Shown here piece after piece: positions 2,529 to 5,184 of a stretch of DNA of 5,184 nt; position 1 is the first letter of the stretch; the number at the start of each line of letters is the position of its first letter. Both the position numbers and the translations under genes were made by a program. Location of the stretch: the IMG/VR virus record IMGVR_UViG_2630968808_000001, positions 1 to 5,184 of that record; one strand, written 5' to 3'. The stretch is from a virus (taxonomy: Duplodnaviria > Heunggongvirae > Uroviricota > Caudoviricetes). The notes below the pieces were generated by a model, which was not told where the DNA came from, made no database searches, and saw only the letters and a program-made list of their open reading frames with translations.

Positions 2529-3221
2529 ATGTTATATGCATTTAAACTGGGCAGAAAACTGCGCGGCGAGGAACCTTATTACCCTGAAAAAGGCGGGAAA
2601 GGTGGCAGTTCTGATAAAAGCGCAAAGTATGCCGCAGAAGCCCAGAAGTATGCCGCAGACCTGCAAAATCAGCAGTTCAACACCATCATGAATAACCTGA
2701 AGCCGTTTACTCCTCTGGCTGAGAAATATGTCGGCAGCCTCGAGAACTTATCGTCTCTGGAGGGGCAAGGTCAGGCACTTAACCAGTATTATAACTCTCA
2801 GCAGTATAAAGACCTTGCAGGTCAGGCTCGCTATCAGAGTCTGGCGGCAGCGGAAGCAACAGGTGGATTGGGTTCCACCGCAACCAGTAATCAGTTAGCA
2901 ACAATCGCACCAACGCTTGGTCAGCAATGGCTATCTGGACAAATGAACAATTACAACAACCTGGCAAATATCGGTCTTGGCGCTCTTCAGGGGCAGGCAA
3001 ACGCCGGGCAAACATATGCCAACAACATGAGTCAGATTTCACAGCAAAGCGCGGCGCTGGCGGCGGCAAACGCCAACCGACCGTCAGCATTGCAGCAGGG
3101 GGTTAGTGGTGCTGCATCCGGTGCGCTTTTGGGTGGTGGCATAGCCAGTGCTCTCGAGCTATCAACTCCGTGGGGGGCTGCGATCGGCGGCGGTCTTGGT
3201 CTGCTTGGCTCGTTGTTTTAA
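2529..3221 (+). CDS. 7: Ejection (injection/pilot) protein, P22 gp7-like (230 aa)
   Basis: ATG at 2529 preceded by GGGAG at 2518-2522. Length is nearly identical to P22 gp7 (229 aa as I recall it). Protein is Q/N/A-rich with a Gly/Ala/Leu-rich hydrophobic C-terminus. Position is immediately after the gp14-like gene. Confidence 0.8.
   Translation: MLYAFKLGRKLRGEEPYYPEKGGKGGSSDKSAKYAAEAQKYAADLQNQQFNTIMNNLKPFTPLAEKYVGSLENLSSLEGQGQALNQYYNSQQYKDLAGQARYQSLAAAEATGGLGSTATSNQLATIAPTLGQQWLSGQMNNYNNLANIGLGALQGQANAGQTYANNMSQISQQSAALAAANANRPSALQQGVSGAASGALLGGGIASALELSTPWGAAIGGGLGLLGSLF
2625..2659 (+). repeat. Perfect 14-nt direct repeat (AAGTATGCCGCAGA) in two copies at a 21-nt offset, in frame inside the gp7-like CDS
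   Basis: Copy 1 at 2625-2638 and copy 2 at 2646-2659 are identical; flanking bases differ on both sides. They encode KYAAE / KYAAD, seven codons apart. Confidence 0.9.
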
Positions 3222-3225
3222 GGGG
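3220..3225 (+). promoter_or_regulatory. Shine-Dalgarno (AAGGGG) for the gp20-like gene
   Basis: AAGGGG lies 5 nt upstream of ATG 3231 and overlaps the gp7 stop codon. Confidence 0.6.
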
Positions 3226-3230
3226 TAATC

Positions 3231-4595
3231 ATGGCTACGTGGCAACAGGGTATTAATTCTGGTGGTTTTCTGGCTGGCATTGGTGCGCAAAACGAGAATG
3301 CGCCAAAGGCAAGCGACATTAACGCAACGCTTGGTCTGATCCGCGAAAACAATGAACTGGCTCGATCAGGTGCAAATAACGTTGGTCTGACCGCGTTACG
3401 TGGTCTGGCTGGAGTTGCTGATATTTATAAGCAGGAACAGCAACAGAAAGCTATTAGGGCGTTCAATAAGGTTCACGCTGATGCATGGGCTTCTGGTGAT
3501 CCATCGGGACTATTTAAGTTTGCCCAGGAAAATCCAGCGTTTGTTGCGCAGGCACAACAGGCGTTTTCCGGTCTTAATGAGCAGCAACGCAACGATATGG
3601 GCGATTCAGCCATGAGGGCTAACGTCGCTCTTTCTCAGGGACCGGAAGCCTACAGTAAATTCATTACTGACAACAAGGACAGGTTAAATCGCGTGGGGGC
3701 GAATGCTGACTGGATGATTCAGACAGGTATCCAGAATCCAGAGCAGCTATCACACATGCTGACTACTATGTCTCTCGGTGCGCTTGGACCAGAAAAGGCG
3801 TTTGCTGTTCAGGACAAAATGGCTGGTCGTGAGATTGACCGAGGCAGGCTGGCAGAGACAATCCGCAGCAATCAGGCTGGCGAGGCGCTAACAGCGCGTG
3901 GTCAGAATATCACGATGCGCGGTCAGGATTTATCGATGCAGAGAGCATCAATGAAAGGGTCGGTTGGGAATAATGAGCGTACAGTTCAGTTAGCAGATGG
4001 CAGAACTGTAACGGTAGGCGGGAAGCTTCACGGCGCTGGGGCTAATGCGTTCTACGAAGGTATCGACAACGAGGGGAATATGGTTCGCGTCCCTGCTGGC
4101 TCTATTGCCGCTCCGGCTACATCGGCAGCAAGCGCACAGAATTACGCAATGAAGAAAGATCTTGATGCAATTTCTGGTGCATCAATTGACGATCTTGGCT
4201 TCATGACTGGCATTACAGGCTCTTCAGGTTCTCCTGCTCTTGGTGCAGATATTCGTAGCCGTGCATCTGGTGGTGATCAGAGGAAACTATACAACGCGGC
4301 ACAGCGAATCCAAGGAAAGATGCAGAATCAGGGCATTGCAGCAGCCAGAGACATGGGGGCATCCGGTATCAACACCGTTGCAGAAGCAAAGATGTATTTT
4401 CAAGGTATGCCACAGGTTGATTTCTCAAGCCCTGAAGCACTGCAACAATCAATGCGCGACATTCAGCAATATACCGACAATTACAACCAGCAATATAACG
4501 TTAATGTTGGTAAATCTCAGCGGCAGCAATCTCAACCTGCACAGGTATCACAGCCAGCAGCCAGCAGTAACTTTTCTTCACTATGGGGTGATTAA
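3231..4595 (+). CDS. 20: Ejection (injection/pilot) protein, P22 gp20-like (454 aa)
   Basis: ATG at 3231 preceded by AAGGGG at 3220-3225 with a 5-nt spacer. Size is comparable to P22 gp20 and it sits between the gp7-like and gp16-like genes. Stop TAA at 4593-4595 overlaps the next start. Confidence 0.78.
4585..4590 (+). promoter_or_regulatory. Shine-Dalgarno-like (GGGGTG) for the gp16-like gene
   Basis: G-rich purine tract 4-6 nt upstream of ATG 4595, inside the 3' end of the gp20-like CDS. Confidence 0.45.
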
Positions 4596-5184
4596 TGGCT
4601 AAAGCATGGAAAGATGTTATCGCTTCTCCACAGTATCAGGCGTTAACTGAAGAACAGAAAGCACAGGCTCAAGCGCAATATTTTGATGAGGTTGTTGCCC
4701 CTAAGGCTGGTGACAAATGGGCTGAAGCAAGAGATCAGTTTTATGCAGCATACCCTCCGCCTCAGCAGCAGAAAGAAGAACCATCATTGATGCAACAAGC
4801 TGGTGATTGGCTCACAGGTGGTCAAAGTGCAGGGCAAATTGCAGAACAGGCTGGTCGTGGTCTGGTAAACATACCATTTGACGTATTGCAGGGTGGCGCA
4901 AGTCTGATTAATGCAATCAGTCAGGGGCTTGGTGGACCCAAGGTTTTGGATGATGTTTATCGTCCAGTAGACAGACCGACAGACCCCTACGCTCAAGCTG
5001 GAGAAACAATTGGCGGGTATTTAGTTCCAGGAGTTGGAACGGCAGGAAGCATGGCTATTGGATCACTGGCAGAGGCCGCAAATCAGAAAGGCGATTTCGC
5101 ACAAAATGCAGCTAAAAATGCCGGAGTTAACCTTGCCGCTCAGGGTGTTCTTTCCGCAGCAGCAAAGGGAATAGGGCGTGGAAT
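4595..5184 (+). CDS. 16: Ejection (injection/pilot) protein, P22 gp16-like; 3'-partial (runs off window end)
   Basis: ATG at 4595-4597 overlaps the gp20 stop (TAATG); GGGGTG Shine-Dalgarno-like at 4585-4590. Frame is open from 4595 to the window end (translation begins [42 protein letters not shown]...). Not in the supplied ORF track because it has no stop in the window. Position matches P22 gene 16. Confidence 0.78.

Follow-up and report, generated by a model that had tools for sequence, protein, structure and literature searches.

Short-tailed phages have to assemble a conduit across the Gram-negative envelope out of proteins first stored soluble in the capsid. For P22 it is debated in what way the first ejected protein engages the outer membrane: gp7 is seen either as a pore in that membrane or as an extracellular channel, in which case gp20 would be the protein that crosses it. 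The locus described here raises this question for one end of one protein, namely what the Gly-rich hydrophobic tail of a gp7-type ejection protein is for. The window analysed is a 5,184-nucleotide stretch of a Caudoviricetes genome (IMG/VR record IMGVR_UViG_2630968808_000001), an E. coli/Salmonella Lederbergvirus sequence with 96% identity to phage phiv205-1. Gene 7 has gene 14 (DUF2824) on one side and gene 20 (Inj_translocase) on the other, within a module of tail-hub, needle and ejection-protein genes. The module order, gp10-gp26-gp14-gp7-gp20-gp16, is the same in P22, Sf6, and APSE-7. Gene 7 and the features that follow it are:

2529..3221, + strand: gene 7, DNA-ejection (injection) protein gp7, 230 amino acids plus stop codon
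3220..3233, + strand: Shine-Dalgarno-like AAGGGG, spacer and gene 20 ATG, directly after the gene 7 stop (sequence inspection)
3231..4595, + strand: gene 20, ejection protein (Pfam Inj_translocase, E=1.7e-117)
4595..5184, + strand: gene 16, ejection protein, 5' part, continuing beyond the window

The start codon of gene 16 and the stop codon of gene 20 overlap (TAATG); in the closest phages gene 16 is annotated as a DNA transfer or membrane-spanning protein. The gene 7 product had been called a gp7-like ejection protein in the initial annotation, and this was confirmed by a full-length match to Pfam PF25688 (P22_gp7; residues 1-230 against profile positions 1-230, E=4.2e-132, 439.5 bits with a cut-off of 28). 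PHROG 598 ('DNA ejection') gives the same gp7 assignment, and identity to database entries named 'DNA transfer protein' is 98%. Counted over the unmasked part, identity is ~84% to P22 gp7 and 84-92% across P22 and Sf6. P22 gp7 has been shown to leave the virion and to be needed for DNA delivery; given 84-98% identity to its homologues, gp7 of this phage probably does likewise. Open reading frames at 2779-3090, 3162-3290, and 3218-3352 on the minus strand and at 2927-3106 on the plus strand were rejected as mechanical, lying within the strongly supported gene 7.

Upstream of the tail, gp7 consists of three parts:

2529..2588, + strand: N-terminal 20-residue propeptide MLYAFKLGRKLRGEEPYYPE, near-identical to P22 gp7 residues 1-25
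2610..3077, + strand: polar Q/N/A-rich helical core, residues 28-183 (AlphaFold2 helices; invariant columns)
3075..3086, + strand: N-[RK]-P-S hinge, residues 183-186, at the junction of core helix and tail (58-tail alignment)

According to the P22 record, the propeptide is cleaved by the host protease OpdA, which yields the mature gp7*, and the N-terminus of mature P22 gp7* was sequenced as Lys-Gly-Gly-Lys-Gly (PMC8402733). The sequence at the cleavage site (YPE before the cut, KGGKGG after it) is conserved with P22, and by this homology the propeptide is probably cleaved in the present phage as well. In the core, AlphaFold2 predicted helices at 28-75, 77-88, 91-111, and 117-183, with pLDDT >90 at residues 80-140, and the alignment contains an invariant turn region, AEATGGLGSTAT...IAP.LGQ.WL. 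The predicted core helices may be antiparallel. The last of them stops at residue 183, where the hinge begins; among the 58 tails N183, P185, and S186 never vary, and position 184 is conserved as R/K. In P22, a gp7 amber fragment that ends at codon 154 is still packaged, so that residues 21-154 are enough for packaging into particles and the C-terminal third is dispensable for this step (PMC8402733).

The tail itself is divided as follows:

3099..3155, + strand: zipper segment 1, residues 191-209, GVSGAASGALLGGGIASAL, with G194-x3-G198-x3-G202-x3-A206
3156..3170, + strand: variable turn, residues 210-214, ELSTP (alignment of tails)
3171..3218, + strand: zipper segment 2, residues 215-230, WGAAIGGGLGLLGSLF, with G216-x3-G220-x3-G224 and a C-terminal Phe

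Positions 3099-3221 translate to GVSGAASGALLGGGIASALELSTPWGAAIGGGLGLLGSLF and a stop codon, that is, residues 191-230 of the 230-residue open reading frame 2529-3221, and the last ~40 residues quoted in the initial annotation (3099-3218) match this translation exactly. The description of a Gly-rich hydrophobic C-terminus on an otherwise polar, Q/N/A-rich protein was borne out by both composition and hydropathy. Gly makes up 12 of the 40 tail residues (30%) and 19 of the 190 body residues (p=0.002, Fisher), Gln and Asn together 0/40 against 41/190 (p=4e-4), and polar residues 2/40 against 86/190 (p=2e-7). The sole charged residue of the tail is E210, which varies among homologues, and only one charge is found across the 46 residues that follow R184. 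The two Kyte-Doolittle maxima over 19 residues fall at 191-209 (1.28) and 211-229 (1.05) and the value is ≤0.2 elsewhere, making the tail the only hydrophobic region of the protein. Hydropathy thus agrees with the earlier description as to where the most hydrophobic segments lie, but these remain below the thresholds of classical transmembrane helices. The maximum of 1.28 compares with ~1.6 needed over at least 19 residues for a classical Sec-type helix, and the Eisenberg 21-residue mean of the tail is 0.56 against a threshold of 0.68 (segment means 0.56-0.72). The summed Hessa scale gives +5 to +6 kcal/mol for the tail, and Wimley-White octanol sums over its segments range from -0.7 to +5.5 kcal/mol, the value for 212-230 being -0.7. 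The zipper segments are uncharged stretches of 16-19 residues with Kyte-Doolittle values of 1.0-1.3.

A transmembrane glycine zipper in the sense of Kim et al. (2005) has conserved glycines in the motif (G/A/S)xxxGxxxG within a membrane-spanning helix. The gp7 tail carries the motif twice, as G194-G198-G202 and G216-G220-G224, with further small residues at 206, 212, and 228. The small-xxx-small spacing claimed for this region can accordingly be read in the sequence as two ladders, G194-G198-G202-A206 and S212-G216-G220-G224-S228. Conservation of the spacing was checked in 58 unique P22-like tails from Escherichia, Salmonella, Shigella, Serratia, Morganella, and Klebsiella. Six columns are 97-100% Gly and they are exactly the two GxxxGxxxG triplets, while the remaining six Gly positions of the tail vary (29-93% Gly); the chance of drawing that exact six out of twelve at random is 1/924. 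In segment 1, Gly is found at 194 in 97%, at 198 in 100%, and at 202 in 98% of the tails, and positions 191, 193, 195, 197, 199, and 206 hold at least 90% small residues. Segment 2 is conserved to its end (G216 100%, G220 98%, G224 98%, G222 93%, G227 93%, L229 98%, F230 88%) and reads GxGxGxGxG in the majority of homologues. Between the two, the turn appears in homologues as G-x-STP, as VPGxGT, or as a 7-residue deletion ending in P-W, and at its border P214 (78%) and W215 (84%) are conserved. Hydrophobic tail positions exchange only among Leu, Ile, Val, and Met. The tail of APSE-7, examined apart from the 58-tail set, agrees with the GxxxGxxxG triplets. A recent internal duplication was considered as the origin of the two segments and rejected, as no DNA repeat was found between them; in register they share 40% nucleotide, 5/16 amino-acid, and 3/16 third-codon-position identity.

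Resemblance to known glycine zippers was measured with the Pfam set PF13441 (YMGG), PF13436, PF13488, and PF05433 ('2TM domain'). Among 25 tails, sub-threshold matches were obtained to YMGG in 24, to the OmpA and Omp zipper families in 11 each, and to 'Glycine zipper 2TM domain' in 5. The best E values were 3e-6 for PF13441, 1.3e-5 for PF13436, and 8.4e-4 for PF05433, again of the sub-threshold type. The present tail scores 18.3 bits against PF13441, under the gathering cut-off of 28.9, and matches of such low-complexity sequence are compositionally biased. Since the scores fall under the Pfam gathering cut-offs, the likeness to zipper families may be convergent. In the AlphaFold2 monomer the tail was modelled as helices at 199-208 and 215-229 with pLDDT <50, a level that extends across 149-230 in a model whose overall mean is 60. 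A Foldseek search of the PDB with this model (mean pLDDT 60) returned nothing under E=3.8, and a PDB sequence search with gp7 returned only a chance lectin match (E=0.6). The tail profile retrieved only antibody light chains sharing 'NRPSG' from the PDB, which were discarded as chance matches.

The predicted arrangement of the tail is like that of the outer-membrane lipoproteins SlyB, YfgH, and OsmB: two uncharged (G/A/S)xxxGxxxG helices follow one another, with a short turn linking them. T6SS/T7SS glycine-zipper toxins and class II bacteriocins can be likened to it as well. Glycine zippers are known from outer-membrane alpha-hairpin rings (SlyB and YfgH, predicted) and from the pores of secreted toxins; such modules are at work in the outer membrane of Gram-negative bacteria or, once delivered from outside, perforate membranes. 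Unlike the SlyB type, gp7 has neither lipobox nor signal peptide, carries a 160-residue helical core, and comes from outside via the phage tail. Its closest counterparts are P22 gp7, Sf6 gp11, and the gp7 proteins of HK620 and CUS-3, with which it shares gene order, propeptide, KGGKG mature N-terminus, and C-terminal tail. Relative to the P22 and Sf6 tails there are point differences only; for example, residue 207 is Ser here and Lys in P22, and residue 210 is Glu here and in Sf6 and Gly in P22. Sequence comparison detected no functional distinctiveness relative to P22-type gp7.

In publications, gp7 already figures either as an ejection protein that is active on membranes or as a tail-proximal 'extracellular channel'. 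Transmembrane helices have been predicted in gp7-type proteins (PMC8954989), and P22 gp7 is cited as partitioning into lipid nanodiscs. gp7* is the first segment of the conduit and is built on gp10 (PMC10883804, PMC8402733). In the in-situ cryo-EM work of Liu/Molineux (preprint, Yu et al., 2026), the gp7* assembly is named an 'extracellular channel' for which the tail hub, gp10, acts as template. Term counts for this preprint gave 'extracellular channel' 32, 'hydrophobic' 7, 'transmembrane' 6, and 'not resolved' 2, with 'glycine' and 'GxxxG' at 0. From this wording, the tail may be a protein-protein element, or it may be unresolved in those maps. Within the texts that were accessible, no mention of a zipper in gp7 was found.

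With modest confidence, we lean towards residues 191-230 forming a C-terminal double-zipper hairpin that packs ejected gp7 subunits into a ring and anchors it at the outer membrane. The hairpin would consist of two short uncharged Gly/Ala/Ser-rich helices (~19 and ~16 residues), each bearing one GxxxGxxxG, with a Pro/Trp-containing turn between them. As shown for P22, the 20-residue propeptide would be trimmed and ~12 copies of gp7 would be packaged via the N-terminal and central part. In cytoplasm and capsid, gp7 would stay soluble because the tail is only marginally hydrophobic. Upon release of the needle, gp7* would exit via the tail and assemble on the gp10 hub into the virion-proximal segment of the conduit, as others have shown for P22. 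There, the tail helices could pack very closely, glycine face to glycine face, with their neighbours in the gp7* ring, comparable to rings of SlyB/YfgH-type 2TM hairpins or to the inner ring of ATP synthase, which is made by c subunits with GxGxGxG. The Leu/Ile/Val/Phe/Trp positions would form the face in contact with the outer membrane. At the distal tip of the gp7* tube, the ring would anchor in or perforate that membrane and so allow gp20 to extend the channel. On this view, the tail glycines determine how the helices pack and do not act as a flexible linker. The initial annotation had proposed a candidate membrane-interacting element of the membrane-inserting or oligomerising kind. As a candidate it gains from the Gly-zipper resemblance and the literature on gp7-type proteins, but insertion into lipid we infer only, since hydrophobicity is sub-threshold and pLDDT is <50; 'oligomerising' is the safer half of that statement.

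A competing reading, possible though rather unlikely, restricts the tail to protein-protein packing or docking, be it gp7-gp7 ring closure, insertion into the lumen of the gp10 hub, or contact with the gp20 N-terminus. In that case gp20 would cross the outer membrane and the tail would never meet lipid. One published explanation for the low diversity of gp7 is that it contacts gp10, itself highly conserved; gp7 was also proposed there as a tail extension (PMC10883804). This fits the templating of gp7* assembly by gp10 stated in the preprint abstract and the 32 uses of 'extracellular channel', as well as the dependence of gp20 incorporation on gp7. Moreover, the last 15 residues are near-invariant, above what is usual for lipid-facing helices, and the hydrophobicity of the tail is marginal. 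However, 40 residues nearly without polar side chains are unusual at a soluble interface, and the tail is the only hydrophobic region of a protein cited as partitioning into nanodiscs. Packaging needs residues 21-154 only, and therefore so does the gp20-recruiting role in the procapsid. In distant homologues the hydrophobic element sits at the other end of the protein; a generic membrane anchor accounts for this more easily than a specific docking site would.

It is very unlikely that the tail is a transmembrane beta-hairpin, ~12 copies of which would give a ~24-stranded barrel like the Gly-rich stem of a beta-pore-forming toxin, perhaps with a role for the C-terminal Phe like that in outer-membrane proteins. 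The idea draws on the period-2 alternation of Gly and hydrophobic residues in segment 2, which is G-A-G-I-G-A-G-L-G-L in most homologues, and on the terminal Phe found in 88% of P22-like tails and in 23/47 distant relatives; in a strand, too, the invariant Gly at i, i+4, and i+8 would share one face. Against it, AlphaFold2 predicts helices rather than strands, sequence similarity goes to helical Gly-zipper families, the alternation is broken at L225-L226, and beta hydrophobic moments are low (0.11-0.13). Counted from the end, the outer-membrane beta-signal has an aromatic residue at position 1, hydrophobic ones at 3, 5, and 7, and Gly at 6. The gp7 tail has F, S, L, and G at positions 1, 3, 5, and 7 and L at position 6, and its reading as a beta-signal was rejected.

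Least probable of all is a low-complexity, disordered Gly-rich appendage serving as a flexible spacer or arising as a by-product of composition, as the pLDDT <50 over 149-230 and the end of all low-complexity-filtered tblastn matches at query residue 166-167, before the tail (most likely an effect of masking by this filter), might suggest, since the alignment instead yields a conserved zipper element with six i+4-spaced glycines fixed across genera while others vary, W215, L229, and F230 are conserved, the tail is without Gln and Asn and essentially charge-free, unlike typical disordered tails, and as a terminus it links nothing.

The preferred double-zipper hairpin singles out six residues for mutation, G194, G198, G202, G216, G220, and G224. 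Deletion of the 40-residue tail may spare packaging, because the tail lies within the C-terminal third that is absent from the packaged amber fragment. With precise residues and this deletion in hand, the outer-membrane question becomes directly testable. Both gp7 and its general role were known before, which makes the tail zipper a refinement, not a discovery; as the motif class is also known, the gain is incremental.

Other phages place comparable proteins at the same step. Like gp7, T7 gp14 (PF24072), DEV gp73, and N4 gp52 are small (~200 residues), largely helical, and first in a three-gene ejection block. For all of them, action at the outer membrane has been either proposed or demonstrated, and DEV gp73 forms pores in bilayers (PMC8954989 among the sources). 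The hydrophobic Gly/Ala segment is N-terminal in T7 gp14, and the predicted transmembrane helix of DEV gp73 is internal (residues 77-91). T7 gp14 matches PF24072 only and gp7 homologues PF25688 only, and hhalign of gp7 profiles (P22-like and distant) against T7 gp14 gave a probability of 0.2%. The visual resemblance between the N-termini of T7 gp14 and of distant gp7 relatives is thus no evidence of common descent, and the gene position shared by gp7 and T7 gp14 is a functional analogy only.

In distant members of PF25688 the Gly/Ala-rich hydrophobic segment is N-terminal instead, possibly a new observation. Murrayvirus Lumpael gp45 and Skarprettervirus AZF88655 have the same core as gp7 (YY.S.EY...AEATGGLGSTAT...IAP.LGQ) and lie in the same hub-needle-gp14-gp7-gp20-gp16 module as in P22-like phages. 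An uncharged Gly/Ala-rich hydrophobic N-terminal segment of ~20 residues was found in 39 of 40 distant members which, compared with gp7 here, have a short GG[LM]F-type C-tail and lack both propeptide and double zipper. Because these members keep such a segment at the other terminus, the element itself may be what is required. It is tentatively proposed, although we regard it as doubtful, that the PF25688 family needs one small-residue-rich hydrophobic zipper element and that the terminus carrying it switched during evolution. Most lineages would then have a single N-terminal Gly/Ala helix, which the P22/APSE lineage would have swapped for a cleavable charged propeptide and a C-terminal double GxxxGxxxG hairpin. 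If the core is an antiparallel hairpin, both gp7 termini would lie at the same pole. About 12 C-terminal hairpins could then form a 24-helix outer-membrane annulus, by analogy c-ring- or SlyB-like, whose lumen, by a rough geometric estimate, would be ~25-28 Å and roughly fit gp20 or DNA.

Gene 7 of the window encodes a 230-aa protein with a full-length match (E = 4e-132) to the Pfam family PF25688 (P22_gp7). By its sequence it is a member of this family; all features testable at that level are present. The 5,184-base window comes from a P22-like podophage of the genus Lederbergvirus and spans its block of tail-completion and ejection proteins. The full window shares 96% identity with Escherichia phage phiv205-1; for UPF_BP1, JEP4, CUS-3, and HK620 the identity is 93-95%. 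The window's genes are:

3-1370, + strand: gene 10, tail hub (Pfam Phage_stabilise match from profile position 24), truncated at the window's 5' end, with the frame open from base 3
1370-2071, + strand: gene 26, tail needle
2071-2526, + strand: gene 14, DUF2824
2529-3221, + strand: gene 7
3231-4595, + strand: gene 20, Inj_translocase
from 4595, + strand: gene 16, start of gene only

One base is shared at the junctions of genes 10/26 (1370) and 26/14 (2071), and the gene 20 stop and gene 16 start overlap as TAATG (4593-4597). Such tight coupling of translation within the operon is usual in this module.

The initial annotation had described gp7 as a polar protein with a hydrophobic, Gly-rich C-terminus. 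Translation of 3099-3221 agrees exactly with the quoted sequence, which forms the C-terminal residues 191-230 (the tail), and both composition and hydropathy bear the description out. Gly makes up 30% of the tail vs 10% of the body (residues 1-190), Gln and Asn are absent vs 22%, and polar residues number 2/40 vs 86/190 (p = 2e-7), with E210 as the sole charged residue. The top two 19-residue Kyte-Doolittle windows are 191-209 (1.28) and 211-229 (1.05); upstream of the tail the value never rises above about 0.2. At the DNA level, 3060-3240 has a GC content of 0.59-0.63 vs about 0.48 in the flanks and a strongly positive GC skew. Successive GGN and GCN codons of the tail account for this, and a separate DNA feature was rejected.

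The spacing of the glycines is conserved. From 120 close homologues and 150 representatives of 50%-identity clusters, 58 distinct tails were taken, each starting at an invariant N-[RKQ]-P-S hinge. Once aligned, they show 97-100% Gly in the columns of G194, G198, G202, G216, G220, and G224, which form two GxxxGxxxG triplets, whereas the remaining six glycines of the window tail are just 29-93% Gly. The chance of obtaining this exact set from a random 6 of the 12 Gly positions is 1/924. Positions flanking the motif (191, 193, 195, 197, 199, 206, 212, and 228) are at least 88% Gly/Ala/Ser, the large hydrophobic positions (192, 205, 219, 223, 225, 226, and 229) show L/I/V/M exchanges only, and W215 and the terminal F230 are conserved at 84% and 88%, respectively. 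The variable part is the connector between the two zipper segments (191-209 and 215-230), which reads x-x-S-T-P, V-P-G-x-G-T, or a seven-residue deletion leaving G-G-P-W. Judged from the alignment, such conserved spacing around a variable connector is the pattern expected for two packed helices and a turn, not for a disordered linker. The same tail occurs in P22, Sf6, and the aphid-symbiont phage APSE-7, and the gp7 proteins of P22 and Sf6 are interchangeable in function (PMC10883804). When 2529-3221 was used as a tblastn query, all matches ended at query residue 166-167, before the tail, most likely because the default low-complexity filter of BLAST masks it. Routine BLAST comparisons would thus miss its conservation, which may explain the scant discussion of the tail.

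The tail resembles glycine-zipper hairpins. Alone, the window tail stayed below threshold against Pfam Gly-zipper_YMGG (E = 0.002, 18.3 bits vs a gathering score of 28.9). Among 25 diverse tails, this profile was matched by 24 (best 3e-6), Gly-zipper_OmpA and Gly-zipper_Omp by 11 each, class II bacteriocins by six, and the "Glycine zipper 2TM domain" of SlyB-type lipoproteins by five; such low-complexity matches are best counted as resemblance, not membership. The tail would work like a transmembrane glycine zipper, yet it falls short of the Pfam thresholds. The SlyB/YfgH outer-membrane "2TM glycine-zipper" lipoproteins, which form ring oligomers, and the T6SS/T7SS glycine-zipper toxins, which are delivered from outside and then perforate membranes, are good functional analogues. 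The segments are marginally hydrophobic, under the Kyte-Doolittle convention of 1.6, and the Eisenberg 21-residue maximum of 0.56 is under the 0.68 reportedly set by Eisenberg in 1984 for a stand-alone transmembrane helix. The summed Hessa scale came to +5 to +6 kcal/mol. On the Wimley-White octanol scale, only 212-230 had a slightly favourable sum. These values would fit a protein that is soluble in cytoplasm and capsid and becomes membrane-active only post-ejection. AlphaFold2, run as a monomer on a 70-sequence alignment, predicted a helical core (pLDDT >90 at residues 80-140) around an invariant AEATGGLGS turn, and tail helices at 199-208 and 215-229 with pLDDT <50. Low confidence is expected of an element presumably existing only in an oligomer or membrane, and the model of the tail is weak evidence in either direction. 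Searches by sequence and by fold with gp7, the tail profile, and the AlphaFold2 model matched no solved structure.

Processing, packaging determinants, ejection, and assembly order have been established for P22 by others, as has, by citation, partitioning of gp7 into lipid nanodiscs (PMC8402733, PMC11445570). Host OpdA removes the first 20 residues, leaving mature gp7* starting KGGKG (PMC8402733); this cleavage site is conserved in the window protein. gp7 is packaged at about 12 copies per virion, and an amber fragment to codon 154 is still packaged (PMC8402733). Residues 21-154 thus suffice for incorporation, and the C-terminal third, tail included, is therefore dispensable for packaging. Such amber mutants are conditional lethals, which suggests that the codon-154 fragment is non-functional, though it may retain partial function; it does not isolate the effect of the tail.

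The Cingolani group placed gp7 with T7 gp14 as an outer-membrane component and noted predicted transmembrane helices in gp14-like proteins (PMC8954989). In the account of the Casjens and Molineux/Liu groups, gp7* extends the gp10 hub as its virion-proximal segment (PMC10883804, PMC8402733). A membrane-active gp7 with predicted transmembrane segments is already a published idea, predicted before and observed by citation. The abstract of an in situ cryo-EM preprint (Yu et al., 2026) has gp10 acting as template for gp7* assembly; by term counts, the preprint uses "extracellular channel" 32 times, "hydrophobic" seven, "transmembrane" six, and "glycine" and "GxxxG" zero times. Searchable literature naming both P22 and gp7 contains neither "GxxxG" nor "hydrophobic C-terminal", and searchable texts hold no explicit description of the conserved double zipper, the most relevant full texts lying outside the search. 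The tail is a correct, well-conserved feature of a known protein with an established general role; its description as a glycine zipper sharpens the choice of residues to mutate and would not surprise a specialist.

At 22-38% identity, distant PF25688 members share the conserved core, with both ends different; all eight that were scanned exceed the Pfam gathering score. Of 40, 39 start with about 20 residues that form an uncharged, hydrophobic stretch rich in Gly, Ala, and Ser (e.g., MSWGFVAVAGATLVGSAVSS); the first charged residue lies at median position 20.5 and the best 15-residue hydropathy averages 1.5. They have neither propeptide nor double zipper, and their C-termini carry a short Gly-rich tail. 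Besides the representatives (P0155-P0268), proteins of two cultured phages have this arrangement within the same hub-needle-gp14-gp7-gp20-gp16 module:

L005:3854-4516: gp45 of Salmonella phage Lumpael
L006:3893-4525: gp7-family protein of Escherichia phage Skarpretter

On these sequences, only the P22/APSE lineage has the double C-terminal zipper and the cleavable charged propeptide. Between lineages, the hydrophobic element appears to have moved from one terminus to the other; the family seemingly requires a hydrophobic helix of small residues and tolerates it at either end. Both termini would share one pole if the core is an antiparallel helical hairpin, which would explain this tolerance.

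The tail may be pictured as an alpha-helical hairpin whose glycine faces would permit very close helix-helix packing as about twelve gp7* assemble on the gp10 hub. Its Leu, Ile, Val, Phe, and Trp positions would form a hydrophobic surface engaging the outer membrane where the gp7* tube ends distally; the membrane would be anchored or opened there, letting gp20 extend the conduit. As a whole, this mechanism is the most likely, and we hold it with moderate confidence. The earlier proposal of a membrane-inserting or oligomerising element was upheld in part: the conserved zipper and sole hydrophobic region favor it, while hydrophobicity is under transmembrane thresholds, and helicity, ring packing, and lipid contact are what we infer. 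A role confined to protein-protein contacts, for ring closure or for docking to gp10 or gp20, is possible though less likely; the naming of the gp7* assembly as an "extracellular channel" and the near-invariant last 15 residues favor it, but the tail is the only hydrophobic segment of gp7 and the corresponding element lies at the opposite terminus in distant homologues. Quite improbable is a transmembrane beta-hairpin or barrel, to which the terminal Phe and the alternating G-x-G-x-G of 216-224 would point, since predictions are helical, the alternation breaks at L225-L226, and the C-terminal pattern of outer-membrane proteins is unmet. Least probable is a disordered low-complexity tail, which position-specific Gly conservation contradicts.

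The N-terminus of T7 gp14 (MCWAAAIPIAISGAQAISGQNAQAK; gene 14 at L001:1129-1719) resembles those of some distant gp7-family proteins (MSWGFVAVAGATLVGSAVSSNAQKSAAKK; P0188, P0206, and P0227). Homology to gp7 was undetected by hhalign, two different gp7 profiles each giving a probability of 0.2%, and T7 gp14 falls in a separate family, PF24072; "gp14-like" refers to position and function. The Gly-rich C-terminal halves of representatives P0127 and P0228 weakly match phrog_1047 ("tail associated lysin") and phrog_11489 (PHROG, E about 1e-4), matches that are probably compositional. A terminal Phe (3216-3218 in the window) is expected at roughly 4% from general amino-acid frequencies, by estimate, and is far commoner in both groups. 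The outer-membrane-protein beta-signal was rejected as its account, as the pattern does not fit. In the distant relatives Phe ends 23/47 C-termini, as GLF in 10, GGF in three, and GAF in three.
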